From IMG/VR virus record IMGVR_UViG_3300027509_000013, positions 68,000 through 131,999 of that record: DNA of 64,000 nucleotides. The stretch is one strand, 5' to 3'. Each line of letters opens with the position of its first letter. Position 1 is the stretch's first letter. This DNA comes from a virus (Duplodnaviria > Caudoviricetes). The notes beneath the pieces were generated by a model that made no database searches, had not been told where the DNA came from, and worked only from the letters and a program-made list of their open reading frames with translations. The position numbers and the translations under genes were made by a program. Of this stretch, positions 2,371 to 15,658 are shown piece after piece.

Positions 2371-3405
2371 TTAGTATGAGAAATTAGGTGTGATATTGAT
2401 ATTGTAGTTGTGTTTAAAGAAAGCCTTAGTAGCTTTTTTGGAAGAGTAGTCTTTATCGGAGCAGACAATGCCATTTTCCATGTAAGAGCAGAATAGGCAT
2501 CCTAGGATCTTTTTATCTTGAATAAAGGTTCCGGCTAGAGGTTGTTCGGAAGCACATTGAGGGCAGAAGCCTTTGATTCTAGTAGGATCTGATATACGAC
2601 CACCTGCGTAGTAGTTTATAGTATCAGGACAGATAACAAAATGGTTTTCATCTGGGATGTTTGATACTTCCGAGAGATCGAGGTTAAAATAGATCATAGA
2701 ATCCCTCATAGGCATAGCAGGGAATAGATATCCTGGTGTTTTGAGTTCATGAGTACACTTTTGATCTTTCTTGTTGATATTTTGTGTGATTTGCTTGAAT
2801 CCATGGTCAAGCATGATTATTTTTAGTCTAGTGGCCATAGCATCGTTGTAGCCGTATATTTTATCGAAATAAATCTGTCTAGAGTCCTTATCTATCCAAG
2901 TAAGGCTTCTGGCAAGTAGCACTTCGCCGCGTTTCACCCTTTTAGAGATACAAGCAGCAGTGATCATCTGTCTATCGTACCAGTTAGCAGAATCTATTTT
3001 AGCCTGACTCTCTACCATGCAAGTCCATAATCCATTTTTATTATGCTGTCTGTATTTGTAGAAGTTTTGAGGTCTAAAGAGATAAGAAGGGCTATTAGTG
3101 TAGAAGTAATCGATATTAGTAAGCGAGCAAGCTTTGATTATGTCCAGAGCCTTGTTAGTAGTAAGAGAAGAGTATTTACCTACTCTGGCGATGAGTTTAC
3201 CCGGCTTTACCTTACGATTATGCTTATCTAGCAGCATAGGAGAGCCAGGAATAGACTTTAGCGGTTGTTTTCGCATAATCTTAGCCAAAGGAGCTGAAAG
3301 TCGCTTCACGGAGCTTAAATCGTGCATTCCAAGGGTCTCTTGGTACTTAGAAATAGGGGAATAGAAGATAGAATCTTGTATAGATCGTCGCTTAAATCGT
3401 TGCAT
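2371..3405 (-). CDS. hypothetical phage protein (possibly PcfJ-like; C-terminal CxxC...CxxC)
   Basis: 344-aa ORF with TCM, ARSLTW and YFDKIY motifs and a Zn-ribbon-like tail. Confidence 0.6.
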   Translation of the reverse strand: MQRFKRRSIQDSIFYSPISKYQETLGMHDLSSVKRLSAPLAKIMRKQPLKSIPGSPMLLDKHNRKVKPGKLIARVGKYSSLTTNKALDIIKACSLTNIDYFYTNSPSYLFRPQNFYKYRQHNKNGLWTCMVESQAKIDSANWYDRQMITAACISKRVKRGEVLLARSLTWIDKDSRQIYFDKIYGYNDAMATRLKIIMLDHGFKQITQNINKKDQKCTHELKTPGYLFPAMPMRDSMIYFNLDLSEVSNIPDENHFVICPDTINYYAGGRISDPTRIKGFCPQCASEQPLAGTFIQDKKILGCLFCSYMENGIVCSDKDYSSKKATKAFFKHNYNINITPNFSY

Positions 3406-3452
3406 AATGTAAAATTAAAGAAATTTATTATGTATTAGTTGAAAAATTGTCT

Positions 3453-3460
3453 TAGATTTG
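3453..3460 (+). promoter_or_regulatory. Bacteroidota-type -7 promoter element for tRNA operon 1
   Basis: TAGATTTG matches TAnnTTTG. Confidence 0.6.
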
Positions 3461-3498
3461 TTTCGAATTAAGAAGTTAGCAATAGACAATACATTAAA

Positions 3499-3567
3499 GT
3501 GAAAACAAAAATTCAACAAAGGCATCCTCGCAACTATCACACTCGTGATGGAGTAGACGCTATTTGA
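3499..3567 (+). CDS. putative attenuator leader peptide 1 (MKTKIQQRHPRNYHTRDGVDAI)
   Basis: GTG...TGA; the codon run CAA CAA AGG CAT CCT CGC matches downstream Pro/His/Arg/Arg/Gln tRNAs. Confidence 0.8.
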   Translation: MKTKIQQRHPRNYHTRDGVDAI

Positions 3568-3595
3568 CCTTTTGTAAAGAACTATTAGTGTAGAT

Positions 3596-3631
3596 GCCCC
3601 TCATGAGTGAAAGCTTATGAGGGGTTTTTTT
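3596..3631 (+). terminator. intrinsic terminator/attenuator before tRNA operon 1
   Basis: GCCCCTCATGAGT-GAAA-GCTTATGAGGGG followed by T7. Confidence 0.85.
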
Positions 3632-3645
3632 ATTTTGATCAATAT

Positions 3646-3721
3646 AGGGATGTAGCTTAGTGGCCAGAGCGCGTATTTTGGGAATACGAAGGCGAGTGTT
3701 CAAATCACTCCATCCCTACCA
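3646..3721 (+). tRNA. tRNA-Pro(TGG)
   Basis: Cloverleaf; anticodon arm CGTAT-TTTGGGA-ATACG; encoded CCA. Confidence 0.95.
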
Positions 3722-3726
3722 ATTAT

Positions 3727-3802
3727 GGTAGCCTTGTGCTGTTTTGCAATGCAGCCGGACTGTGGATCTGGTGCGACGGGTTGGATTCCCGAGGTTTACC
3801 CA
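3727..3802 (+). tRNA. tRNA-His(GTG), atypical D and T loops
   Basis: CCGGA-CTGTGGA-TCTGG; T loop TTGGATT; imperfect acceptor stem; ends CCA. Confidence 0.8.
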
Positions 3803-3807
3803 ATAAT

Positions 3808-3880
3808 AGCCATGTAGCTCAACTGGCAGAGCGCTTCCCTACGAAGGAAGGGGTTGGGAGTTCGACTCTCTCCATGGTTA
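3808..3880 (+). tRNA. tRNA-Arg(ACG)
   Basis: CTTCC-CTACGAA-GGAAG; canonical D and T arms. Confidence 0.95.
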
Positions 3881-3924
3881 CTAAAATTTTAAAAATCGAC
3901 GGCGCTTCGCGCCTAGATACACAT

Positions 3925-4004
3925 GGTCAGGTAGCCACCCTCCTCTTCTAAAGGAGTAAGTGTAATTGGAGCTGAAAATCGGGGTTCGAATCCCTGTCTG
4001 ATCA
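3925..4004 (+). tRNA. tRNA-Arg(TCT), D-armless with long variable region
   Basis: Acceptor GGTCAGG/TCTGATC; CTCCT-CTTCTAA-AGGAG; T arm CGGGG-TTCGAAT-CCCTG; only 8 nt between acceptor and anticodon arms. Confidence 0.8.
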
Positions 4005-4054
4005 CTATTAAATAATAAATTTATTATTGTATATTTGTAAAAAATATATTAATT

Positions 4055-4321
4055 ATGACAGCATCGGAATTGTTAAATAAAGTACTGACTAAAGTATTTG
4101 CACTTCAATCTTTATCTGGTAAAATCAGGATAAAGACTGAAGAAAATAAAATGCAAGAACTAAATCTGTTTATTGTCTACTCTAATCATCCTGTTCAGTA
4201 TAACAATAAAATAAGTATTCTGAATTCTGATGATCATGATCTTGAAGAAATTTGGGAACAATTCAAAGAAGATGTTGATACCAATATAAGAGCAATTGAT
4301 CATATCGTTAATATGCCTTAA
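4055..4321 (+). CDS. hypothetical protein
   Basis: 88-aa ATG ORF with TATATTTG at 4030-4037. Confidence 0.7.
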   Translation: MTASELLNKVLTKVFALQSLSGKIRIKTEENKMQELNLFIVYSNHPVQYNNKISILNSDDHDLEEIWEQFKEDVDTNIRAIDHIVNMP

Positions 4322-4330
4322 ATTACACAA

Positions 4331-4403
4331 TGATGGTTAGCATAACTGGTTAGTGCATCGGGTTTTGGTCCCGAGGGATGGAGTTCGAGTCTCCGACCGT
4401 CAT
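4331..4403 (+). tRNA. tRNA-Gln(TTG)
   Basis: TCGGG-TTTTGGT-CCCGA; T1-A72. Confidence 0.95.
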
Positions 4404-4418
4404 CTAAATTACTGTTTT

Positions 4419-4715
4419 ATGAATGATACAAACATACCTGGTCCTTCCTTTACGGACTTTCTATATGCTGATATACCTACATTTACATCAGGTGAAGGTG
4501 TAGATACTCTTGAATATTTCAAACCTATCATACCAGATCCTGGTCCTAGACAGTTTAATTTATTTGTAGGCACCGAAGGATTCTTTCTTATTAGTGACGG
4601 GTTTAAAGATGAAAGAGATCGATCAGAACGTAAACACTGGCTAGCTCAAAGAATAGCTTACAGGAACCTGATCGATGGTAGAGAATATTACTCACGATTT
4701 AATAGCCCAGTATGA
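4419..4715 (+). CDS. hypothetical protein (start MNDTNIP)
   Basis: ATG just after tRNA-Gln. Confidence 0.6.
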   Translation: MNDTNIPGPSFTDFLYADIPTFTSGEGVDTLEYFKPIIPDPGPRQFNLFVGTEGFFLISDGFKDERDRSERKHWLAQRIAYRNLIDGREYYSRFNSPV

Positions 4716-4997
4716 GAAGATTTATAGGTCAGGAGATAGATGTCGGATCATTCTATACTTTAAGATACAGGTGGGTTTACCTGCCAAATGAGGCCTACAT
4801 CGAAGTTCCGCGGCAAATCCGACCATCAGTGCACTCAAACAAACAAAACATCCTCTACAGCGGCCAAAAACTACTTATCCGATGAATAAATACTACAAAC
4901 AAGCTATTATTGAAAGATATCAAAGCCACAATGGATGCTTATCATGCTTTATATTTATTATCTGGATTTTAGTAATGCTTATTGCATTGATACTTTC

Positions 4998-5252
4998 TTA
5001 CTCATGAAAAAACAAGAAATAAATCCAAGCACCAATAAATAAAAGTACAGGTATAAAACCAAAAATGAAATAACGAAATTTTCTATAGTATATCATTTTC
5101 TTCTCCTTTATTATAAGCTGATCATAATAGTAGTTAATAGCTTTGGGAATAGAACTACTCCAATAACCAAATGATATAGAAGATTCCTCGTAGTGCTCGA
5201 GAGCTCTTTTCCTCAAATCTTCTAGTGGTGTTTGTGCTGCTTGATTATCCAT
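4998..5252 (-). CDS. small membrane protein
   Basis: C-terminal hydrophobic segment. Confidence 0.65.
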   Translation of the reverse strand: MDNQAAQTPLEDLRKRALEHYEESSISFGYWSSSIPKAINYYYDQLIIKEKKMIYYRKFRYFIFGFIPVLLFIGAWIYFLFFHE

Positions 5253-5691
5253 TGTCTAATTTTATTTTAGCATCTATTTCTAAACCAATTATATCATGCA
5301 ACTCTTTCCTCAGATTCTTAGCTGTCTTTTCTGCTTCCAGTATCCCAGATATCAATTTCTTATGTCTTAATTTAGGATCGTGAATCCTTTTATCTCTAGG
5401 CTTGCTAATTGCAACCGAAGCCAAATCAAAACCTAAATTAGCTATTGCAACATTCAAATCATCTAGATATAAATCTCTAGGAAAACCAAATGCATTTCCA
5501 TCAGTTAATTGCTTGAAAATAATCATTTGAGGAACTGGATTGATTTCATGCTGTTCGCAGATTATTTTAGCCTCTTCTAAGCTTTGCTTGCTGTATCCAA
5601 CATAAGTGCCTCCAGTCCTAGAAGCACATTTTAAAAGATGTATGGTTTTACCACTTCTTCTTGATTTATATAGTATTTGTACATTATTCAT
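5245..5691 (-). CDS. small P-loop NTPase-like protein
   Basis: RRSGKT Walker-A-like and LYLDD Walker-B-like motifs. Confidence 0.6.
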   Translation of the reverse strand: MNNVQILYKSRRSGKTIHLLKCASRTGGTYVGYSKQSLEEAKIICEQHEINPVPQMIIFKQLTDGNAFGFPRDLYLDDLNVAIANLGFDLASVAISKPRDKRIHDPKLRHKKLISGILEAEKTAKNLRKELHDIIGLEIDAKIKLDNG

Positions 5692-5872
5692 TTTTTGATT
5701 TTATTTGTTCTTTAAGCCATAAAAAAGCTATTTCTTTTGATTCAAAATCAGAGCTTGCATCTGATACATATACACCAACTCTTTGTTTAGTGCTTTTAGC
5801 TATAAATGATACATAATGCTCTGTTCCATTATGCTCTACCTCTGTTAATTCTATAAATCTATCTAAAGTCAT
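5684..5872 (-). CDS. hypothetical protein
   Basis: 62-aa ORF directly after a TATATTTG motif (5877-5884, minus). Confidence 0.65.
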   Translation of the reverse strand: MTLDRFIELTEVEHNGTEHYVSFIAKSTKQRVGVYVSDASSDFESKEIAFLWLKEQIKSKNE

Positions 5873-5902
5873 AAATCAAATATACAAAAAATTTTTATTT
5901 AG

Positions 5903-5977
5903 TACACCAGGTGGGCTACGATCCCACGATCCCTCGATTAAAAGTCGAGTACTTTAGTCCAACTAAGCTACTGGTGC
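5903..5977 (-). tRNA. tRNA-Lys(TTT)
   Basis: CTCGA-CTTTTAA-TCGAG; T loop ATCGTAG. Confidence 0.92.
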
Positions 5978-5979
5978 AT

Positions 5980-6055
5980 TGGAGAACGTAGACGGGCTCG
6001 AACCGTCGTATCCGGATTTGCAGTCCGGCGCCTATGCCATCTCAGCCATACGTTC
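5980..6055 (-). tRNA. tRNA-Cys(GCA)
   Basis: CCGGA-CTGCAAA-TCCGG; U73; encoded CCA. Confidence 0.95.
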
Positions 6056-6060
6056 ATTAG

Positions 6061-6128
6061 CACAGGATGAATGAGTCGAACACTCTCGTAAGGGTTTGGA
6101 ATCCTTTTAGCTCCACAGCCTATCCTGC
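6061..6128 (-). tRNA. tRNA-Trp(CCA), shortened D arm
   Basis: AAGGA-TTCCAAA-CCCTT; D arm GCT-GTGG-AGC; G73. Confidence 0.85.
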
Positions 6129-6133
6129 ATAAA

Positions 6134-6216
6134 TGATTGATCCTCGGATTCGAACCGACCTCTGCCATTGCCACTCACTTTTCAGCGCGGGAGGAATCGA
6201 ACCTCAAAATCAATCA
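6134..6216 (-). ncRNA. tRNA-like RNA with two T-arm hairpins
   Basis: Closing stem TGATTGAT/ATCAATCA encloses GAGG-TTCGATT-CCTC and TCGG-TTCGAAT-CCGA. Confidence 0.55.
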
Positions 6217-6219
6217 TAG

Positions 6220-6291
6220 CGACAATGGACAGATTCGAACTGCCGTCCTCGGAACTTCACCCCGATGCTAAGCCACCTCAGCTACATTGTC
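6220..6291 (-). tRNA. tRNA-Phe(GAA)
   Basis: TCGGG-GTGAAGT-TCCGA. Confidence 0.92.
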
Positions 6292-6295
6292 AAAT

Positions 6296-6331
6296 AAAAA
6301 AAGCCTCGCAAAATTAATTACGAGGCTTTTT
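6296..6331 (-). terminator. intrinsic terminator/attenuator before tRNA operon 2
   Basis: Minus strand AGCCTCGTAA-loop-TTGCGAGGCT followed by a T-tract. Confidence 0.85.
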
Positions 6332-6353
6332 CATATGATCTAATCACATAGGT

Positions 6354-6413
6354 TTAGCAATCTCGCAATTCATGCAAAGAGAAACAAAACCATTTTTTTG
6401 TAATTAAAATCAT
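6354..6413 (-). CDS. putative attenuator leader peptide 2 (MILITKKWFCFSLHELRDC)
   Basis: ATG...TAA; AAA AAA TGG TTT TGT TTC matches downstream Phe/Trp/Cys/Lys tRNAs. Confidence 0.85.
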   Translation of the reverse strand: MILITKKWFCFSLHELRDC

Positions 6414-6417
6414 AATG

Positions 6418-6437
6418 CAAATATAGTGTTATATTTG
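6418..6437. promoter_or_regulatory. divergent Bacteroidota-type promoters
   Basis: TATATTTG on minus (6418-6425) and on plus (6430-6437). Confidence 0.65.
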
Positions 6438-6449
6438 TTAAAAAATAAC

Positions 6450-6776
6450 ATGATATCAAAACTTTCTTCAGAAGTAATCGATTTCGTAGCTAAAGTAGAA
6501 GCCAAATATCTTGAATACATGCAGGAGAGATTCCCTAATAATCGTATTGAGGAATTTGAAGTAACTGAAAACAAAAAGTACGTTAAGGTTATTCAATCAG
6601 GTGCCTTCTGCTTTATCAATAGAGAAAATGGGGATATCTATATGGCTAAAACATTTAGTTCTCCATCATTAAAAAATCCTCGAGGTAATTTATTCTCTAA
6701 ACAACTGGGAATGGAAGCGATATCTGAAAGATCTGCAGGAGGTAGAATCCATCCCCATATTAGGTATCTAAGATAA
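6450..6776 (+). CDS. conserved-looking small phage protein
   Basis: KKYVKV...FINRENGDIYMA...PRGNL pattern resembles small phage proteins; own promoter motif. Confidence 0.7.
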   Translation: MISKLSSEVIDFVAKVEAKYLEYMQERFPNNRIEEFEVTENKKYVKVIQSGAFCFINRENGDIYMAKTFSSPSLKNPRGNLFSKQLGMEAISERSAGGRIHPHIRYLR

Positions 6777-6780
6777 AAAG

Positions 6781-6851
6781 CGGGCCATCCCGGGCTCGAA
6801 CCGAGGATAACGGAGAGACAGTCCGTCGTATTACCACTATACTAATGGCCC
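6781..6851 (-). tRNA. tRNA-Asp(GTC)
   Basis: ACGGA-CTGTCTC-TCCGT; G73. Confidence 0.92.
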
Positions 6852-6855
6852 ATTG

Positions 6856-6929
6856 AGCCTAAGCAGGGATTCGAACCCCGGACATCTTCATTACAAATGA
6901 AGCGCTCTGACCAGCTGAGCTACTTAGGC
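6856..6929 (-). tRNA. tRNA-Thr(TGT)
   Basis: CTTCA-TTTGTAA-TGAAG. Confidence 0.95.
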
Positions 6930-7366
6930 AAGTTTTTATTTAAATGAGACATTTTACCTCCACATCTTCGGCTACATGTAGGTGTTTTTCCCATTGATAG
7001 TTTATGATTTATATTTTTACAGTCTTTTGAAAATTCATTTTTACAAATTGGACAAATTAAGGTTATCATTGTTTTAGATTTCCCAATATGCTTATTGTGC
7101 TTCACTATATTCTCTTTTCTGGAAAGGATTTGAAGATTTGATATAGAATCATTCATTTTATTTTCATCTATATGATCTACATGCTCTTCTGGCCTTAAAT
7201 ACCTTCTTACATGACAACTCATTATATATCTAGCATATGAAGTCGAAGTTTTTGTCCCATCTCTCCGAACCAATGCGACAACTCTTCTTGGTTCTTTGTT
7301 TGTATTTACATATCCTGCGATGTAATCTTTATAATATGGCCATCTTAATACTATTTTTGTTGACAT
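6920..7366 (-). CDS. HNH homing endonuclease inside the tRNA array
   Basis: HVDHIDENKMNDSISNLQIL HNH motif and C-terminal CPIC...CSRRC; stop overlaps the tRNA-Thr 5' end. Confidence 0.9.
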   Translation of the reverse strand: MSTKIVLRWPYYKDYIAGYVNTNKEPRRVVALVRRDGTKTSTSYARYIMSCHVRRYLRPEEHVDHIDENKMNDSISNLQILSRKENIVKHNKHIGKSKTMITLICPICKNEFSKDCKNINHKLSMGKTPTCSRRCGGKMSHLNKNLPK

Positions 7367-7386
7367 ATAAATTTATTTACTTAATG

Positions 7387-7463
7387 TATCTGCGGAGAGA
7401 CTTGAACTCTCATGTGACCAATTACGCTTTCGACAAGATATAAGCTTGAGGCGATACGCAGAC
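7387..7463 (-). tRNA. tRNA-Ile(TAT), D-armless with long variable region
   Basis: GTCTGCG/CGCAGAT acceptor; CAAG-CTTATAT-CTTG; GAGAG-TTCAAGT-CTCTC. Confidence 0.8.
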
Positions 7464-7475
7464 AATATAACATTG

Positions 7476-7546
7476 TAGTTCTGGCAGGACTTGAACCTGC
7501 GTCCATGGTATGTAACACCACTGCTCGGCCACTGAGCTACAGAACT
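7476..7546 (-). tRNA. tRNA-Val(TAC)
   Basis: GTGGT-GTTACAT-ACCAT. Confidence 0.92.
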
Positions 7547-7619
7547 AGAGCCGCTTTCATTTATAACGCGCCAACGTCACCTTCTAAAAAGGCAGGTCAT
7601 TACAAGCGGGACCTGTTTG

Positions 7620-7693
7620 AGCACGAATTCGGGATCGAACCGAATCTATTCTAGCTTGGAAGGCTAGCGCACCACCATTTATGCGTCTCGTGC
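7620..7693 (-). tRNA. tRNA-Gly(TCC)
   Basis: CTAGC-CTTCCAA-GCTAG; U73. Confidence 0.92.
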
Positions 7694-7797
7694 TTATGTA
7701 CCTCAAGTTGATCTTAAAACTCTTCCTAGCTCCCTAAATGGGAGGGCTACAGAAATTCAAATCAAAATGGCTTGGGCCATCAGGTAATTTCAGTTAG

Positions 7798-7874
7798 TTG
7801 GCACAATAGGATTCGAACCTATGTTTTCAACCGCTATCTTAGTCATGCGTATCAGGCATGCCGATTATGTGCCA
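7798..7874 (-). tRNA. tRNA-Ile(GAT), D-armless with long variable region
   Basis: TGGCACA/TGTGCCA; CATGC-CTGATAC-GCATG; ATAGG-TTCGAAT-CCTAT. Confidence 0.8.
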
Positions 7875-7879
7875 ATATG

Positions 7880-7953
7880 CTGCTTTGCAAGGGATCGAAC
7901 CTTGGACCTACGGATTAACAGTCCGCCGCTCTAACCAACTGAGCTACAAAGCA
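7880..7953 (-). tRNA. tRNA-Asn(GTT)
   Basis: GCGGA-CTGTTAA-TCCGT; G73. Confidence 0.95.
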
Positions 7954-8012
7954 ATGTAAGGGTAATCGTAAGATCTCGACGGCCACTTCGGACACCCTAA
8001 AATCGATTATTG

Positions 8013-8085
8013 TGGAGAAGAAGGGCTTCGAACCCTCAACCTTCTGATTGCAAATCAGATGCACGTCCTCTTGTGCTTCAACCCC
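8013..8085 (-). tRNA. tRNA-Ala(TGC)
   Basis: TCTGA-TTTGCAA-TCAGA; G3-U70 present; two U-U mismatches in the acceptor stem. Confidence 0.9.
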
Positions 8086-8088
8086 AAA

Positions 8089-8162
8089 TGGCGGGAGAGG
8101 GAGTCGAACCCTCGTCTTGGGCTTATGAGACCCAGCTGGAACCACCTCCAGTCTACCCCGCA
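8089..8162 (-). tRNA. tRNA-Met(CAT), initiator-like
   Basis: TGGGT-CTCATAA-GCCCA; 1:72 mismatch and a GCGGGG acceptor as in tRNA-fMet. Confidence 0.85.
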
Positions 8163-8175
8163 ATATATTTTCCAT

Positions 8176-8213
8176 AAAAAAAGGGACCAGAAAATTAATC
8201 CTGATCCCTTTTT
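8176..8213 (-). terminator. intrinsic terminator/attenuator before tRNA operon 3
   Basis: Minus strand AGGGATCAGGA-loop-TTCTGGTCCCT followed by a T-tract. Confidence 0.85.
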
Positions 8214-8234
8214 GTATATTGTATGTTACTTACT

Positions 8235-8315
8235 TCAATACATAAAGAGACCAGGTGACGTATCATCGCCTCCGGCTACTATTGTAATATTGATATTGGT
8301 AATAATTTGTTTCAC
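8235..8315 (-). CDS. putative attenuator leader peptide 3 (MKQIITNINITIVAGGDDTSPGLFMY)
   Basis: GTG...TGA; 16 consecutive I/T/N/V/A/G/D codons match downstream tRNAs; promoter TACATTTG at 8335-8342. Confidence 0.85.
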   Translation of the reverse strand: MKQIITNINITIVAGGDDTSPGLFMY

Positions 8316-8372
8316 TTTACTTTTTATTGAATGACAAATGTACATTAAGTTTTATTACTAAGCAACAATTAA

Positions 8373-8807
8373 TCAATAATATCTTTTTGCTTGTAATGCT
8401 ATATCTATTTTAGCCCAGTTTACATAGTCTCTCCCTGTCGGGTTTTTGATCAATGGGCAACATATAGATGCATCATCGATATAAATGTGACAATAAGCTT
8501 TAGGACTTGTAGTCCATGTGTACTGTGTCGGATTTGTTTGGATCCCAAATAAATGAATTTCTCTGTCCTTAAACCAATTCACTGCTTGAGCTAGATAGTC
8601 TCCTGACTCAGTTATGATCTGAGGATCTTCTGATTCTGGATTGACTATATTTGATCTCATGGTAAATAAAATCAAATTATGTCCATTGGCTACTAACTTT
8701 TTAAGAGTCTTTACTGCTCCTGGAACGTCCGCTCCGACTTTAGGAAATTCATGTATCACACATGTTCCATCAAAATCTACCCCTACGTATCTATTTTCTT
8801 GCATCAT
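8373..8807 (-). CDS. HAD-superfamily phosphatase
   Basis: VDFDGT motif I, FTMR, K and YIDD motif IV. Confidence 0.85.
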   Translation of the reverse strand: MMQENRYVGVDFDGTCVIHEFPKVGADVPGAVKTLKKLVANGHNLILFTMRSNIVNPESEDPQIITESGDYLAQAVNWFKDREIHLFGIQTNPTQYTWTTSPKAYCHIYIDDASICCPLIKNPTGRDYVNWAKIDIALQAKRYY

Positions 8808-9531
8808 TGAATAAGCTATTTATTTTTAAATCATTATATCTCTTCTGTCCATCAGTGAAGTAATCTATATCTTTTTCACAAACTACTAAAGTTAGATTCA
8901 TATTATCGATTACATTAAGTTTATTGACAGCTAGAGCTAAACTCATGCTTCCTCCATGGGTGTCTAAGATCTTCTCTCCTGGCTTTGCATATTCCATTAG
9001 TAGCCATTCGTACAACTTAACTGGCTTTTGAGTAGGGTGTATTCTCTTTTCGTTGAGTTTCTTGTTCCCTTGCTGCTTTAGTGCCTTTACTCTATCTTTT
9101 CCACAGTATACTCCTTGCATCATTCCAGAGAACATGTAGTAAACGATGTCCATTCTGTTGCTAAAGCTTTGGTAGGCGATCTCACATCCATATTGGTCCG
9201 CGCCATTTGCTACTATCTTATCCCAGACTATTCTGCCGCCAACAAGATTAGGATAGTAGTTTGCACCCCAGATTATTTGATTCTTACTTACTCTAAATAA
9301 TTCGTCAAAGTACTCTGGTGGACTTCTCTGATCATCCCAATCTTTATGTTTGTATTTCGCTTGTTTTACTGGTCTATATGTTCCATTTGGTTGTTGAGCC
9401 CGACCTGATTTTGTAGAAGGCTTACTAGCACCTATTCCATATTCAAGATCTGGCATGGCTAAGTCGAAAAAGTTATCTCCGAGATCACGCATGAAATCCA
9501 TGTTGTCAGTATGTAGAAGAAGTATACTCAT
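8791..9531 (-). CDS. DNA amino-methyltransferase (N6A/N4C, beta class)
   Basis: HPTQKPVKLY and ILDTHGGSMS motifs; catalytic motif reads DLEY. Confidence 0.85.
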   Translation of the reverse strand: MSILLLHTDNMDFMRDLGDNFFDLAMPDLEYGIGASKPSTKSGRAQQPNGTYRPVKQAKYKHKDWDDQRSPPEYFDELFRVSKNQIIWGANYYPNLVGGRIVWDKIVANGADQYGCEIAYQSFSNRMDIVYYMFSGMMQGVYCGKDRVKALKQQGNKKLNEKRIHPTQKPVKLYEWLLMEYAKPGEKILDTHGGSMSLALAVNKLNVIDNMNLTLVVCEKDIDYFTDGQKRYNDLKINSLFNDARK

Positions 9532-9797
9532 TACAGCGCAGTACCAAGAAGTTGAGCCCCGGATTCAGAAGTATCCTTAGACATAACATATTGTTTTTCT
9601 CCTTCATCATCCCAAACACGATTAGAACAATCTGAACAGTATGTTTTCCCTTCTTCAGTAATAGACCATTCTCCTGCTTCTAAGATATCATCTTTTATTG
9701 CAGATTTCTCACTTAAAGCTACACATCCACTCCAAAGCTCATAGTTCTCTTTGCAGATATCACAAGATGCACACCACATTTTTACTTCTTCTATCAT
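9531..9797 (-). CDS. small Zn-binding hypothetical protein
   Basis: CDIC...CSDC. Confidence 0.65.
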   Translation of the reverse strand: MIEEVKMWCASCDICKENYELWSGCVALSEKSAIKDDILEAGEWSITEEGKTYCSDCSNRVWDDEGEKQYVMSKDTSESGAQLLGTAL

Positions 9798-9901
9798 AAT
9801 TTTTTTATTTTCGAATAACCATCCGCTATCGGACTCCCTACCGATACCTGCTCCTTGGTGATCACCTTACTTTGGACGAGCTACGGATGATTGTTCTTCT
9901 C

Positions 9902-10336
9902 TTAATTAAATCCTAAATCAACTACTCTAGTACTCGGCGCTATCTCTTTCCAATTTCCTAATAATACTTCTGCAGGAGGCAAATCTAGTAAGCTTGCTAA
10001 ATCTATATAGGTGTCATAACATGAAGTAACATATAAATCTTTGAAATAACCCATTATAGCCATATGGTCCTGCAGAGAGATGTTTCTTAGTCTTAGATTT
10101 AAAGAACTGTCATCAATGGTCGACATTAGAATCCAGTAGTCTCCATGGTAACTATCAGGTTGAATAACTACACTGGTTGACTTTCCTCTATACTCAAATG
10201 TATTTGGATTAGCATTGAGAAGGATCTTATGAGTATGAATGCCGACATCATCAGTATAATAGATCCAATGATTCTTGTATAAATCTGGAATAGGCTGATT
10301 ATGTCTGTATTCCCAATCTTTGATGTACTTAATCAT
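9902..10336 (-). CDS. hypothetical protein
   Basis: 144-aa ORF overlapping the upstream stop. Confidence 0.65.
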   Translation of the reverse strand: MIKYIKDWEYRHNQPIPDLYKNHWIYYTDDVGIHTHKILLNANPNTFEYRGKSTSVVIQPDSYHGDYWILMSTIDDSSLNLRLRNISLQDHMAIMGYFKDLYVTSCYDTYIDLASLLDLPPAEVLLGNWKEIAPSTRVVDLGFN

Positions 10337-10769
10337 TATTAAACCGTTTTAACTCTCCACAATTTTGTGCATATTTAATAACTCCTTCCAATACATCTTT
10401 AGTCATTGATTCAATGTCATCATCAGTCATGTCTACACCCAATATTGGACCTTGAACTTTAACTGAAATACTTTGAATTTGACCTATTTTTACGAATCCA
10501 CATTTGTGAGGACAGTTAAATACAGAAACTATGATGTTTTTGTCTTTACCTTCTAATGGCATTTTTACGTGTAAGTAACGTGGATCATTTGGTAATTGAT
10601 AAGGATTATATTTCTCTTTCAGTGCTTCAAGCACAGCATAATAAGCCTTTTTTCTGCCTGGCATTATGTTTCCTGATAAATCTAAAGATTCCTTTAGAAG
10701 AGTTATCTCCTTATCATTCAAATCATTCATGTTGTCGCATACATCCTTAATTGCTTCTCTTATTTCCAT
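10329..10769 (-). CDS. hypothetical protein (start MEIREAIK)
   Basis: ATG at 10769, downstream of the tRNA-like RNA. Confidence 0.65.
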   Translation of the reverse strand: MEIREAIKDVCDNMNDLNDKEITLLKESLDLSGNIMPGRKKAYYAVLEALKEKYNPYQLPNDPRYLHVKMPLEGKDKNIIVSVFNCPHKCGFVKIGQIQSISVKVQGPILGVDMTDDDIESMTKDVLEGVIKYAQNCGELKRFNND

Positions 10770-10782
10770 TATTGTGTATTTG

Positions 10783-10900
10783 AGGCCAGAGCAGGACTCG
10801 AACCTGCAACACATCTTATATCGCTAGAAAATAAAGGTGTCTTAAAAATAAGAAGGATACTCCTAAAAAGTACTGCGTCTACCAATTCCGCCACCTGGCC
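10783..10900 (-). ncRNA. Leu-type tRNA-like RNA with TTA anticodon-like loop and ~50-nt insertion
   Basis: GGCCAGG-TGGCGGAATTGGTAGACGC...GCAGG-TTCGAGT-CCTGC-TCTGGCC; arm GTACT-TTTTAGG-AGTAT. Confidence 0.7.
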
Positions 10901-10916
10901 TTAGATTTTAAAAATC

Positions 10917-10953
10917 GTCAGGGGACGATCAATATCCTTCAGAGTCCCCTGAC
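10917..10953. other. strong hairpin
   Basis: GTCAGGGGAC...GTCCCCTGAC perfect 10-bp inverted repeat. Confidence 0.6.
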
Positions 10954-10964
10954 TTTATATGGTA

Positions 10965-11195
10965 CTATGCTTTTACAAGTATTTATGCTGACAATATAAA
11001 GAATCGCTCTACCCCTAAGCTACCCGACCTTGATTGTTTTTTAGAGGTCGGGATGGGATTCGAACCCATGACCTATTCCTTTAGTTTACTTGTAGCCTTT
11101 CCCATGTATAATCCTGATGCTAAAGCTATTACCTCAACATTAAATCTAATATCTAGCATTTAATGAATCTGAACGTAATGCTTATGCTTCAGGTA
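10965..11195 (-). ncRNA. circularly permuted tRNA-like RNA (Y-RNA/YrlA-like topology) with a 5' hexamer-repeat tract
   Basis: Order is T arm (ATGGG-TTCGAAT-CCCAT), loop-closed acceptor (CCCGACCT/AGGTCGGG), D arm (TAGCTTAGGGGTAGAGC), with closing stem TACAAGTA/TACTTGTA. Confidence 0.75.
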
Positions 11196-11197
11196 AT

Positions 11198-11989
11198 TTA
11201 CTTTTTATGCAAATATGCAAACAAACTGTCAGCAGTAATGCTTGACTTTACACTTTCTACTTCATTAGCTTCTTTCAAAGCCTGAATAACAGCAACTCTA
11301 AGCTTAGATATTCTTGACAATACCTCTGCTTTTTCTCTTTGAGAAAAAGCTCCAGTAAATATTTGACGAGAACCCTCACCTAATGTAACAGTAGTTGTTT
11401 TTTGAGCAACTTTAGGAGTATAGCTAGCTCCATCAATCTTAGAAATATTTGGATCTTCTAAGATGTAATCGACTTTTTCAGTTGTTTTATTCTCAGTACG
11501 AACTAATGGGTTTTCATAGATGCCTTTTCTTCCTTCATAAGACTCTTCTACAGTAGGATTCCACTCAACAGCATCTGATCTAACTGGTATGCTTGAATAC
11601 ATACTCTTAAATTCAGGTGAGTCAATCAAAGATTTTAATCTAAGTAATTCTAAAGTAGACAAATCCTTCCACTTAATGTCATCAAAAATCAAATCAGCTT
11701 TAGCTGCGCCAGAAGCATTAGTAGCTTCTTGATCAAAAAGACTATCTATATAATCCTTAGAACTTAAAGAAAAGTAATCTAATTTTTCATCAACAGTAGT
11801 AACCACTAATTGATTGCTTCTAAGTTTTGGGTCATCTACAGTTTGATCTTTTGGCTCATAAGTTTTCTTTTCACCAAAAAAAGCACCTTGATTTTTAGTG
11901 AAAAACTTAATGTAATTTTGAAGTGCTCTTTTAAATTCCTGACCAAGAGCATCGGTCTTTGCTAATAATACATTTAATTTTACATTCAT
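11198..11989 (-). CDS. uncharacterised protein directly upstream of the permuted tRNA-like RNA
   Basis: 263-aa ORF with its own TACATTTG motif (12008-12015). Confidence 0.85.
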   Translation of the reverse strand: MNVKLNVLLAKTDALGQEFKRALQNYIKFFTKNQGAFFGEKKTYEPKDQTVDDPKLRSNQLVVTTVDEKLDYFSLSSKDYIDSLFDQEATNASGAAKADLIFDDIKWKDLSTLELLRLKSLIDSPEFKSMYSSIPVRSDAVEWNPTVEESYEGRKGIYENPLVRTENKTTEKVDYILEDPNISKIDGASYTPKVAQKTTTVTLGEGSRQIFTGAFSQREKAEVLSRISKLRVAVIQALKEANEVESVKSSITADSLFAYLHKK

Positions 11990-12061
11990 TATAATTCAAT
12001 TTTGAATCAAATGTAAACAAAATATTTTTTAATTAAGCAATAAATAAATATTTTTTTAAAA

Positions 12062-12094
12062 ATAGCTGACATCGGTATTAACGATATCAGCTAT
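12062..12094 (-). terminator. hairpin after tRNA operon 4
   Basis: ATAGCTGA...TCAGCTAT inverted repeat followed by Ts on the minus strand. Confidence 0.55.
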
Positions 12095-12098
12095 ATAG

Positions 12099-12186
12099 CG
12101 GTAAGTGAGAGGATCGAACTCTCAAGGCCTTTCAGCTCGCCATGTTTCAAATATGGTTCCGTCGCCTGCCATCGGATTGACCTACC
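12099..12186 (-). tRNA. tRNA-Ser(TGA)
   Basis: CCATA-TTTGAAA-CATGG; long variable arm; G73. Confidence 0.9.
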
Positions 12187-12192
12187 ATGTTG

Positions 12193-12281
12193 CAGAAGGA
12201 GAGGGATTCGAACCCTCGCTACCAATTAAAGTAGACCTCAGATTAGCAGTCTGGTACTATTACCAACTCAGTCACCCTTCT
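12193..12281 (-). tRNA. tRNA-Ser(GCT)
   Basis: CAGA-CTGCTAA-TCTG; long variable arm; G73. Confidence 0.92.
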
Positions 12282-12285
12282 ATAG

Positions 12286-12369
12286 TGGGAATAGATGGAG
12301 TCGAACCACCCGAGTCATTATAACAACAGATTTACAGTCTGTCCCGCTACCCCTACGGTATATACTCCC
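12286..12369 (-). tRNA. tRNA-Tyr(GTA)
   Basis: ACAGA-CTGTAAA-TCTGT; variable arm. Confidence 0.95.
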
Positions 12370-12373
12370 ATTG

Positions 12374-12447
12374 TACACACGATCGGACTTGAACCGATAA
12401 TCAACGCATTTTAAGTACGTCGGCGTTGCCATTTAGCCTACGTGTGC
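12374..12447 (-). tRNA. tRNA-Leu(TAA), short variable loop
   Basis: ACGTA-CTTAAAA-TGCGT; 5-nt variable loop. Confidence 0.88.
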
Positions 12448-12453
12448 TAAAAG

Positions 12454-12537
12454 TACCGAAGGTGGGACTCGAACCCACAAAGGTGTCACTTTCTAAAAGT
12501 GTGCAGTATGCCTAATTCCCACTTAACCCACTTCGGC
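12454..12537 (-). tRNA. tRNA-Leu(TAG), enlarged D region and short variable loop
   Basis: CACT-TTTAGAA-AGTG; GTGGG-TTCGAGT-CCCAC. Confidence 0.82.
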
Positions 12538-12541
12538 AAAT

Positions 12542-12580
12542 AAAAAAAGCCCATTGCGATATTTCACGCAATGGGCTTTT
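12542..12580 (-). terminator. intrinsic terminator/attenuator before tRNA operon 4
   Basis: Minus strand AGCCCATTGCG-loop-CGCAATGGGCT followed by a T-tract. Confidence 0.88.
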
Positions 12581-12603
12581 GTAGTTCTTAACTTATTTCT
12601 ACA

Positions 12604-12669
12604 TCAATACCGGTTGCGTTCGTCGTTAGACAAATAGAGCAGACTCGATAATGATGATGTATTTTTCAT
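12604..12669 (-). CDS. putative attenuator leader peptide 4 (MKNTSSLSSLLYLSNDERNRY)
   Basis: ATG...TGA; TCA TCA TTA TCG AGT CTG CTC TAT TTG TCT matches Leu/Leu/Tyr/Ser/Ser tRNAs. Confidence 0.85.
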   Translation of the reverse strand: MKNTSSLSSLLYLSNDERNRY

Positions 12670-12680
12670 TGTATTATTTG

Positions 12681-12752
12681 TAACCCGTGAGATAATCGAA
12701 ATCTCCGCTTCACCTTGAAAAGATGACGTCCTGACCACTAGACCAACGGGCC
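12681..12752 (-). tRNA. tRNA-Glu(TTC)
   Basis: TCATC-TTTTCAA-GGTGA. Confidence 0.92.
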
Positions 12753-12793
12753 TAGGTTCCTCAATTTCTATGTTAATATTGTTTCTCACAGTG

Positions 12794-12801
12794 CAAATGT
12801 A
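12794..12801 (-). promoter_or_regulatory. Bacteroidota-type -7 promoter element for tRNA-Glu and operon 4
   Basis: TACATTTG. Confidence 0.6.
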
Positions 12802-13431
12802 CTATAAAATATTGATTCGTTCCCAATCCCACTCAATTAATTCGTCACTGTTATCTCCTTCGATGTAAATTCCTCTATGTGTAACCTTCTTGGCTTCAAG
12901 CTCAGTGTCATCAAAAATAAACTTGTCTCCTGCTATCAGATCATAGATGTTATAGATGATTCTAGTACCATCCTTCATCTGTTTTCTAGCTGATTTCGCT
13001 TTTTCATCTGCTAATTCATTGCCCGGATTGCCATTATGTGATCTTACCCACTTGACATATAGCTTTTTATCTAGTATTCTGGCTAAGTTGATCATTCGTT
13101 CCCAAAGGTGCCTAGCAAAGACTCTCTCTCCATTGCTTTTCATCCATCGATTGTGCTCCCAGGTGTACATCCACCTAGCGACTCCTAATGCTACATACTT
13201 ATTGTCTGTGTAAATTACTGCCTTTCTAAATGACTTGGTATTCTCTACTAGATACTGCAAACTGGCTAATACTGCTCTGACTTCTAACTCAGCACTGTTG
13301 CCTTCTCCATTTCCAAGATTGATTTTTGGGTCATTTCCATCTTCATAGATTACTGAAGCCCATCCTCCAAGACCACCTTTGCCCAAACCTGAGCCATCGG
13401 TGTAAATTGTTGTGTCATAATTCATTCTCAA
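12802..13431 (-). CDS. rnhA: ribonuclease HI
   Basis: YTDGS, AELE, YTDNKY and WVRSHNGNPGNELAD motifs. Confidence 0.93.
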   Translation of the reverse strand: MRMNYDTTIYTDGSGLGKGGLGGWASVIYEDGNDPKINLGNGEGNSAELEVRAVLASLQYLVENTKSFRKAVIYTDNKYVALGVARWMYTWEHNRWMKSNGERVFARHLWERMINLARILDKKLYVKWVRSHNGNPGNELADEKAKSARKQMKDGTRIIYNIYDLIAGDKFIFDDTELEAKKVTHRGIYIEGDNSDELIEWDWERINIL

Positions 13432-13433
13432 AT

Positions 13434-13679
13434 CTACGAAAAAAATAAATTATTTTTATTAATAGTATCACTTTCTTCGTAGATGAGTTGAATTACTCCT
13501 TTTTTGATGTTTCTGATTTTGACTGAAAATTCGCTGATACTAATTCCTCGAGATGAGCAAAACTCTATCGCAGGATCTTCTACTTTGTGTCGGGGGATGC
13601 TTTGGTTGAAGTAATCAGACAATAGATCAAATTCTTCTGGATATAGTTCTTTTATAATTTTTTCTAAGGTCGTGGACAT
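13434..13679 (-). CDS. hypothetical protein
   Basis: Packed ORF. Confidence 0.65.
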   Translation of the reverse strand: MSTTLEKIIKELYPEEFDLLSDYFNQSIPRHKVEDPAIEFCSSRGISISEFSVKIRNIKKGVIQLIYEESDTINKNNLFFS

Positions 13680-13680
13680 T

Positions 13681-14046
13681 TTAGTAGAAGTCTCCGTTCA
13701 TTAATCTTCTTGGTGACCAGTGACTTAATCCCATTACTGTTAATGGCCTAATGATCCTTGATAGTCTGGCTATCAAAAAGTCTTCGTCTACATGAGTTTC
13801 TGCTTCTTTTCTATGCCATTCTTTGACTGTCACTCCTTTTGGAAATGGAGTGAGGTTTTTCATTTGATCAGTAACTAAAGGTGGCCATTCAGCGTAAGAC
13901 TTGACTTTAGCGGCACCAAAATACTTGTAGATTGGCTTTAGTTCTTCTGCGTTTTCTAATTCCCAGGCTTGAACAGCTTCCATAGCTGATGTTGTCAAGT
14001 AGCTATTGTTGTTTGTACAGAATGAGTAATATTTAACTTCTAACAT
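13681..14046 (-). CDS. hypothetical protein
   Basis: Packed ORF. Confidence 0.7.
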   Translation of the reverse strand: MLEVKYYSFCTNNNSYLTTSAMEAVQAWELENAEELKPIYKYFGAAKVKSYAEWPPLVTDQMKNLTPFPKGVTVKEWHRKEAETHVDEDFLIARLSRIIRPLTVMGLSHWSPRRLMNGDFY

Positions 14047-15556: not shown

Positions 15557-15658
15557 GTTTTATTTATTAAAATATTTTTTATATACGTATCTTATTACAA
15601 AGATTATATTTATCTTTGTTTCATGTCGCATTATGTGGACTATATAAAGGTTTGCCCT

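Follow-up and report, generated by a model that had tools for sequence, protein, structure and literature searches.

A candidate terminator-free leader of glutamate codons ahead of a phage tRNA-Glu gene

In classical ribosome-mediated transcription attenuation, known from the leader peptides of the trp, his, phe, leu and thr operons and from pheST, a short open reading frame (ORF) with a run of codons for the sensed amino acid or tRNA lies just upstream of the regulated gene. Here we describe such an arrangement, and a departure from it, among the tRNA genes of a Caudoviricetes phage. The stretch analyzed, which we call the window, comprises 64,000 nucleotides (nt), positions 68,000 to 131,999 of IMG/VR record IMGVR_UViG_3300027509_000013, and is the right half of this 132-kb virus record (G+C 35.9%). 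Four units of the window match the full classical design, with a hairpin and a terminator and, for leader 4, a predicted antiterminator. The element in question is a 12-codon ORF rich in glutamate (Glu) codons, hereafter the mini-ORF, which leads into a tRNA-Glu(UUC) gene. It resembles the classical leaders in being a short ORF with a cognate-codon run just upstream of the gene, but its unit has neither terminator nor antiterminator, the product to be regulated is the tRNA itself, and the ORF continues through that gene.

Two further systems bear comparison. In translational attenuation by stalling, as in the ermC and cat leaders, a ribosome stalled by a drug in a short leader ORF alters downstream RNA folding without a terminator, and the remodelled RNA exposes a ribosome-binding site; in the phage the remodelled RNA would instead be a pre-tRNA and the stall would depend on the supply of Glu-tRNA. 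T-box riboswitches likewise respond to whether a specific tRNA is charged and thereby control the translation-pathway genes of that amino acid, but they bind the uncharged tRNA directly and need no ribosome; the T-box covariance model of Rfam gave no match in 3000..14000 at E up to 1. ORFs that run into phage tRNA genes are themselves frequent: of 784 unique tRNA contexts drawn from all phage loci that we fetched, 520 are entered by an ORF for at least 6 nt. Examples are an HNH ORF of the window (7366..6920), which ends inside a tRNA-Thr gene, and a 111-amino-acid ORF that ends inside tRNA-Glu in the related locus L001. Those are ordinary genes without cognate-codon runs, whereas the mini-ORF is very short, Glu-rich and placed at a predicted transcript start.

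We tentatively favor, at somewhat less than even chances, the reading that the mini-ORF is a fifth cognate-codon leader, one without a terminator, and the Glu member of a set covering 20 amino acids. The prior for a Glu leader is raised because each of four sister leaders has a codon run that matches the tRNAs of its own array. The common view of phage tRNA genes is that they are constitutive helpers of codon usage. Four leader-terminator units and one terminator-free unit, with codons for exactly the tRNAs that follow, suggest a demand-driven supply in which the phage reads charged-tRNA pools via stalled ribosomes. The Glu unit matters because transcription termination cannot be its mode; if functional, it shows that translation can control tRNA maturation directly, and at 120 nt it would be a compact, testable model. 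If the Glu unit is a product of chance, the four classical units still stand and tRNA-Glu is a constitutive member. In the full-text literature, subscription journals not covered, we found no description of leader-peptide control of phage tRNA genes or of translational control of tRNA maturation.

Anatomy of the tRNA-Glu unit

The unit and its upstream neighbor consist of the following features.

12794..12801, minus strand: -7 promoter box TACATTTG, which fits the Bacteroidota sigma-A consensus TAnnTTTG
12753..12789, minus strand: 37-nt 5' leader of the tRNA-Glu precursor, identical with the mini-ORF, GTG AGA AAC AAT ATT AAC ATA GAA ATT GAG GAA CCT A(GG)
12757..12768, minus strand: Glu-codon run GAA ATT GAG GAA (E-I-E-E), -16 to -5 from the tRNA 5' end
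12680..12752, minus strand: tRNA-Glu, anticodon UUC (ARAGORN; Rfam RF00005, 50.7 bits against a gathering score of 29)
12604..12789, minus strand: full open frame of 61 codons with a GTG start, spanning the mini-ORF, the codons formed by tRNA-Glu, 11 nt of spacer and leader 4
12802..13431, minus strand: RNase H gene (PF00075), upstream neighbor, stop codon 12 nt before the GTG

On the minus strand the order is TACATTTG (12801..12794), cact, GTG (12789). The original prediction, made from the letters alone, had placed the GTG 4 nt after a promoter motif and the codons GAA ATT GAG GAA just before the tRNA, and had the frame staying open through the whole tRNA to join leader 4 in frame. All of this is borne out, the run (12768..12757) ending 4 nt before tRNA-Glu and the ORF extending over 12789..12604, although the open frame and the in-frame junction are both ordinary by chance. 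The mini-ORF encodes MRNNINIEIEEPR, and its final AGG codon straddles the 5' bases of tRNA-Glu, whose acceptor stem opens with two G-U pairs and whose CCA is not encoded. The 61-amino-acid translation runs from MRNNINIEIEEPR through PVGLVV... (the tRNA part) to MKNTSSLSSLLYLSNDERNRY (leader 4), and takes in the leader-4 ATG (12669) in frame; among the three sense frames across tRNA-Glu, this one alone stays open.

It had also been claimed that tRNA-Glu is the only tRNA without a terminator in front of it. As worded this is too broad, as tRNA-Gln (4331-4404) comes directly after an 88-amino-acid ORF and an intron-bearing tRNA (10782-10900) comes after the DUF7873 gene. What stands is that tRNA-Glu is the only tRNA to come first after a promoter without a leader and terminator between.

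The TACATTTG box abuts the stop codon of the RNase H gene (12804..12802). A candidate -33 TTG lies 22 nt upstream of the box (12826..12824), and two other intergenic TACATTTG promoters have a TTG at 20 and 22 nt. Across the whole window the motif TAnnTTTG occurs 93 times against 72.6 expected, a modest excess. We infer that the host is a member of the Bacteroidota because the nearest genome-contig matches lie in metagenome-assembled genomes (MAGs) of Cytophagales and Saprospiraceae and because the intergenic promoters of the window are of the TAnnTTTG type. In Bacteroides this box is reported under the name of '-7' element (PMC7366714). Because it is reported to occupy -12 to -5 in Flavobacterium psychrophilum (PMC9723704), the +1 is predicted to fall on G12789, so that the transcript would begin with the GTG and the mRNA would be leaderless.

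Five of the 30 TAnnTTTG boxes outside long ORFs have an ATG or GTG at exactly the spacing of the mini-ORF, 4 nt downstream, among them the boxes of sister leader c (TATATTTG-catt-ATG) and of a 62-amino-acid gene (TATATTTG-attt-ATG). This proportion suggests that leaderless mRNAs are more frequent in the phage than in its presumed hosts. Start-spaced boxes in non-coding DNA include 5884-5877 (minus), 6425-6418 (minus), 15611-15618 (plus) and genome position 67867 (minus). A second route to the GTG could lead from the RNase H gene, whose stop codon lies 12 nt before it with no terminator between, by read-through transcription and by ribosomes that re-initiate.

Sister leaders and the leader-4 attenuator

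The sister leaders, and the parts of the attenuator that lies behind tRNA-Glu, are as follows.

GTG 3499, plus strand: leader a, peptide MKTKIQQRHPRNYHTRDGVDAI, run QQRHPR, then Pro, His, Arg, Arg and Gln tRNAs
GTG 8315, minus strand: leader b, peptide MKQIITNINITIVAGGDDTSPGLFMY, run IITNINITIVAGGDDT, then Met, Ala, Asn, Ile, Gly, Val, Ile, Thr and Asp tRNAs
ATG 6413, minus strand: leader c, peptide MILITKKWFCFSLHELRDC (MILITKKWFCF...), run KKWFCF, then Phe, Trp, Cys and Lys tRNAs
ATG 12669, minus strand: leader d (leader 4), run SSLSSLLYLS, then Leu, Leu, Tyr, Ser and Ser tRNAs
3453-3645 (plus), 8342-8164 (minus), 6425-6292 (minus), 12669-12538 (minus): the four leader-terminator units
12604..12669, minus strand: leader-4 ORF, peptide MKNTSSLSSLLYLSNDERNRY, with its own ATG 11 nt after tRNA-Glu
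12566..12619, minus strand: antiterminator pairing of segment 2 with segment 3, predicted with a ribosome masked on leader-4 codons 6-12, -12.5 kcal/mol
12545..12580, minus strand: intrinsic terminator of the leader-4 attenuator, with a 14-bp stem and a T-run behind it
12098..12537, minus strand: tRNA array behind the leader-4 attenuator, Leu(UAG), Leu(UAA), Tyr(GUA), Ser(GCU), Ser(UGA)

Each of leaders a to d is followed by a strong hairpin and T-run terminator. Their longest runs of codons for their own arrays are 6, 16, 6 and 10, and runs for a foreign array are no longer than 2 with the exception of leader a against array b (6). These four units look like classical attenuation applied to phage tRNA genes. 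Between 3000 and 13000, ARAGORN finds 18 tRNAs by default and 25 with a relaxed threshold, which adds His, Arg-UCU, Ile-UAU, Ile-GAU, Ser-UGA, a UUA tRNA and 12453-12537; all 20 amino acids are covered. The last of these is taken as Leu(UAG) from its anticodon loop (Rfam tRNA, 33.5 bits), while relaxed ARAGORN calls it a Ser tRNA with an intron. The four leader runs leave out only Glu, the amino acid whose tRNA has E-I-E-E ahead of it. The HNH endonuclease ORF (PF13392; 6920-7366, minus) lies inside tRNA array b, with its stop codon within tRNA-Thr.

Leader 4 starts ATG-AAA, as the other leaders do, in an A-rich context, and its ten consecutive Ser, Leu and Tyr codons match the five tRNAs downstream. 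A hairpin over these regulatory codons and the terminator give a fold z of -5.84. Equilibrium folding retains the terminator in every case, and the antiterminator forms only with the 3' arm withheld, which mimics co-transcriptional folding. So modelled, leader 4 has the predicted design of a classical three-structure attenuator.

Because the two leaders share a frame, they can also be read as one. The 61-codon frame would then be, or once have been, the leader of a Glu-Leu-Leu-Tyr-Ser-Ser unit with tRNA-Glu in frame inside it. In one variant the Glu codons gate the access of the first ribosome to the Ser/Leu/Tyr codons, so that a Glu stall leads to termination at 12580..12545 and tRNA-Glu itself is unregulated; in the other they are relics of an ancestor with tRNA-Glu behind the terminator, as in a 55-kb jumbo-phage fragment (G006). 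The frame is continuous and alone open across tRNA-Glu, the amino acids of its two runs (E, then S/L/Y) are those of the tRNAs of the unit, and G006 carries Glu codons within a classical multi-amino-acid leader. Yet the in-frame junction is ordinary, being expected about 1 time in 3 by chance once the frame is open, and leader 4 has an ATG of its own, 11 nt after the tRNA and in an A-rich context. Moreover, tRNA-Glu lies upstream of the terminator and hence would not be regulated, and in the related locus L027 a comparable mini-ORF ends 9 nt beyond tRNA-Glu, directly ahead of tRNA-Asp, with neither a leader nor a terminator there. We regard a joint leader, whether working or relic, as distinctly improbable.

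Rarity and recurrence of the Glu run

What would set a separate Glu leader apart is its codons rather than its frame. An open frame through a tRNA is ordinary: in the window 12 of the 63 sense frames over 21 tRNAs are open, several of them over longer stretches than the 61-codon frame, and 103 of the 784 contexts have a start-anchored ORF that begins at most 60 nt upstream and is open through the whole tRNA. The Glu run and the start codon at the predicted transcript start are not ordinary. Among 6104 start-anchored frames of this genome, 1.9% have at least 3 Glu in the 12 codons after the start and 0.25% have at least 3 within 4 consecutive codons. In the 52 other IMG/VR tRNA-Glu(UUC) contexts, collected via a degenerate tRNA pattern, no frame of the upstream 45 nt holds 3 or more Glu codons. 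Among 750 unique contexts, 3 Glu codons are reached in 2 of 59 tRNA-Glu contexts against 0.6 expected from non-Glu contexts. Of 712 non-Glu contexts, 4 have a mini-ORF with at least 3 Glu that reads into the tRNA, and none has one that continues to the far end of the tRNA; 2 of 60 Glu contexts do, namely the window and L027.

The ATG of the L027 mini-ORF overlaps the stop codon of the upstream cREC_REC gene (ATGA) and opens MNNLKEGEELIA. Its GAG codons at -18, -12 and -9 (run -18 to -7) have the same E-x-E-E spacing as those of the window, which lie at -16, -10 and -7 from tRNA-Glu. No stop codon interrupts this frame within tRNA-Glu; it ends at a TAA 9 nt past the gene, and tRNA-Asp comes directly after. 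A recurrence by chance is unlikely, at a few percent, if only the four or so related contexts count as trials. The L027 gene just before the mini-ORF and tRNA-Glu (2818-3267, plus) encodes a cyclic-phosphate processing receiver domain (PF20274, E 1.4e-20), a domain linked to RNA-end processing, which here adjoins the tRNA cluster.

The sequence of leader, terminator and array repeats in three other records. In L027 (130-330), TACATTTG is followed by MTHTIYIIGANRGNDREVKRSAGYQLCDTDLG, a terminator and tRNAs for Lys, Val, Arg, Asn, Gly and others, and in G002 (L098, about 1750-1580, minus) an MK... leader is followed by a terminator and tRNAs. The G006 fragment, which holds 47 tRNAs, has ...HIQPQPQHPQ... 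ahead of Pro/His/Gln tRNAs and MKRLFDILVAVLMVDVLLWAAEEDKLCTVG (...AAEED...) with a terminator ahead of Asp, Asp, Glu, Glu, Val, Val, Leu, Ala, Leu and Trp tRNAs. The design is thus conserved across a phage group, and this group employs Glu codons as sensors inside a classical leader, since the G006 leader with its Glu codons and terminator precedes Glu tRNAs. Sites of this design, whose examples include a leader rich in Leu, Val, Ala, Asp, Glu and Trp codons ahead of the corresponding tRNAs, were also noted at L155 2340-2495 and 8172-8372 and L156 10755-10956 and 2874-3164. In G006 there are also ORFs between the tRNAs of one array. An 'MNRNN...' ORF before a G006 tRNA-Glu(UUC) was considered as a counterpart of the mini-ORF and set aside; it has no Glu codon, and we take the resemblance as chance.

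These relatives are distant, and none close enough for a codon-level conservation test turned up in any collection searched. Over all of them the best protein identity for the DUF7873 gene neighboring the tRNA-Glu unit was 57%. The phage collection gave DNA matches at the tRNA level only and distant protein matches, the best to Lak phages (42%, DUF7873 gene). A scan of IMG/VR returned no relative with the RNase H protein as query, one (49% identity) with the DUF7873 protein and no match to a 25-nt piece of tRNA-Glu. Alignment-based scans gave 72 metagenome loci (best 57%), 23 IMG/VR loci and 3 loci in Cytophagales/Saprospiraceae MAG contigs, most of them with no tRNA near the searched gene. 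The tRNA-Glu DNA of the window, compared with the whole records of four nearer relatives (the L009 record not among them), gave only a 17-nt T-arm match, and locus L020, read through, had neither a clear leader nor a tRNA-Glu. Among sequencing runs the match was to a single marine DNA metagenome, probably the source of the record itself; no RNA run contains the sequence.

A number of observations weigh against a fifth leader. The original prediction had looked to relatives for conservation of the frame, and this found one recurrence, open through tRNA-Glu, but little more. The feature is common to just 1 of about 4 independent related tRNA-Glu contexts; with all 59 other Glu contexts as trials and a background of 4/712, the probability of the recurrence is about 0.28, which is not significant. 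Moreover, the register of the two mini-ORFs differs by one base (codons start at tRNA positions 3, 6 and 9 in the window and 1, 4 and 7 in L027), and their DNA upstream of tRNA-Glu is not significantly similar, 54 of the 784 contexts and 990 of 5000 shuffles scoring as high. The junction with leader 4 is found in the window alone, the L001/L037 type has its 111-amino-acid gene ending inside tRNA-Glu with one Glu codon nearby and no Glu-rich mini-ORF, and G006 uses the classical leader with terminator. The tRNA-Glu(CUC) genes of gut phages (L078-L097) have hairpins with T-runs directly before them and no Glu-rich ORF. Nor are mini-ORFs that read into tRNAs enriched in cognate codons in general (20 cases against 21.8 expected in 772 contexts); at least 3 cognate codons just upstream of the tRNA were found in 74 of 750 contexts against 59.8 expected, which we judge no excess. 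The transcript start, finally, is predicted rather than mapped, and over all 174 boxes of the genome a start codon at +4 is no more frequent than expected (9 against 8.2). Leaderless GUG starts are weak in well-studied bacteria. Leaderless mRNAs are reported to make up 5.5% of the total in F. psychrophilum (PMC9723704), and about 3.7% of the mRNAs of B. thetaiotaomicron are reported to have a 5' untranslated region shorter than 10 nt (PMC7366714).

Much of this would be expected if tRNA-Glu simply had an ordinary precursor whose 37-nt 5' leader is removed by RNase P, the GTG, the Glu codons and the open frame being coincidental in AT- and purine-rich sequence and the leader-4 attenuator being real. 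Open frames through tRNAs and ORFs reading into them are common, cognate codons are not generally enriched, the feature is absent from most relatives, window and L027 show no significant similarity in upstream DNA, no alternative structure stands out in the leader (below), and leader 4 has an ATG-AAA start like those of the other leaders. Coincidence accounts poorly for how rare the Glu run is when its features are taken jointly (0.25-1.9%), for a start codon placed precisely on the predicted +1, as in leader c, for the recurrence in L027, and for the fact that the one amino acid which the other four leaders leave out is Glu. We consider pure coincidence rather unlikely.

A possible occlusion mechanism

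For the fifth leader, a mechanism has to be sought outside transcription. The Glu codons cannot regulate the transcription of tRNA-Glu, because the only terminator of the unit lies downstream of that gene. If a stall is to raise the output of tRNA-Glu, translation must lower it. As the likeliest mode we propose that ribosomes would start at the GUG, or re-initiate after the RNase H gene, and traverse the nascent tRNA-Glu, keeping it from folding and from cleavage by RNase P. When charged tRNA-Glu is scarce, the ribosome would stall at the first Glu codon, 16 nt upstream, and the tRNA body would be free to fold and mature; passing ribosomes would enter leader 4 in frame and leave its attenuator undisturbed. 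Ribosome traffic would in this way act as a terminator-free feedback switch: with a Glu-x-Glu-Glu sensor in a leaderless GUG mini-ORF, the phage would hold back the maturation of its own tRNA-Glu until the charged form became scarce. The sensor set for 20 amino acids would then be complete, and through it the phage would gauge every tRNA pool of the infected cell and replenish it as needed. We infer the occlusion, and with it the transcript start, the translation and the effect on tRNA maturation, and hold the switch as a whole to be doubtful, if possible.

Two points fit occlusion: in both phages the ORF extends over the entire tRNA, and the first Glu codon lies 16-18 nt upstream. Judged by the ribosome footprint, a stall at that first codon would spare the tRNA body, but a stall at the second or third would cover the first tRNA bases (acceptor strand). 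The tRNA may also still fold once a ribosome has passed, and occlusion would then only delay maturation. No known attenuation mechanism applies to the mini-ORF, because its leader has no terminator, antiterminator or significant structure. No terminator-like site lies between the promoter box and tRNA-Glu (12789..12752), the nearest terminator being the one at 12580..12545, downstream of the gene; the leader and tRNA together (12789..12670) fold no better than shuffled sequence (z -0.09; 92 of 200 shuffles fold at least as well), and no mutually exclusive antiterminator/terminator switch was found in that fold. The original prediction had spoken of the same sensing logic in a terminator-free variant. 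The start geometry of leader c and a cognate-codon run like those of the four sister units speak for it, and the lack of a general cognate-codon enrichment speaks against it; as an observation the prediction is partly confirmed, and its interpretation is partly supported.

The same fold bears on whether the Glu codons are codons at all. A GAR run rich in purines, which reads GAGGAA in the window and GAGGGCGAGGAGC in L027, might act untranslated, for example by pairing transiently with the acceptor or T-arm strands of the tRNA or by guiding the processing of the precursor. The acceptor 5' strand GCUCCCG of L027 offers a pairing partner for CGAGGAGC, and the minimum-energy fold of the window pairs 5' GUGAGA with UCUCAC (T-stem/acceptor) and CUAGGCC with GGUCUAG (D-arm). 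These pairings are not the same in the two phages, however, the window fold is no better than that of shuffles, and the in-frame start codons in both phages are left unexplained; no Rfam family besides tRNA matched 12604..12801 at E up to 1. An untranslated element seems to us very improbable.

The gut-phage relatives L078-L097 also carry a tRNA with the anticodon CUA, which reads amber codons and hints at stop-codon recoding. In the window, the tRNA-like gene at 10782-10900 (minus; Rfam tRNA, 42.5 bits) has the anticodon UUA, which would read UAA, and a 39-nt intron according to relaxed ARAGORN. Beside it, 10985-11105 (minus) gives a weak match to Y RNA-like YrlA, at 34 bits below the gathering score of 69.

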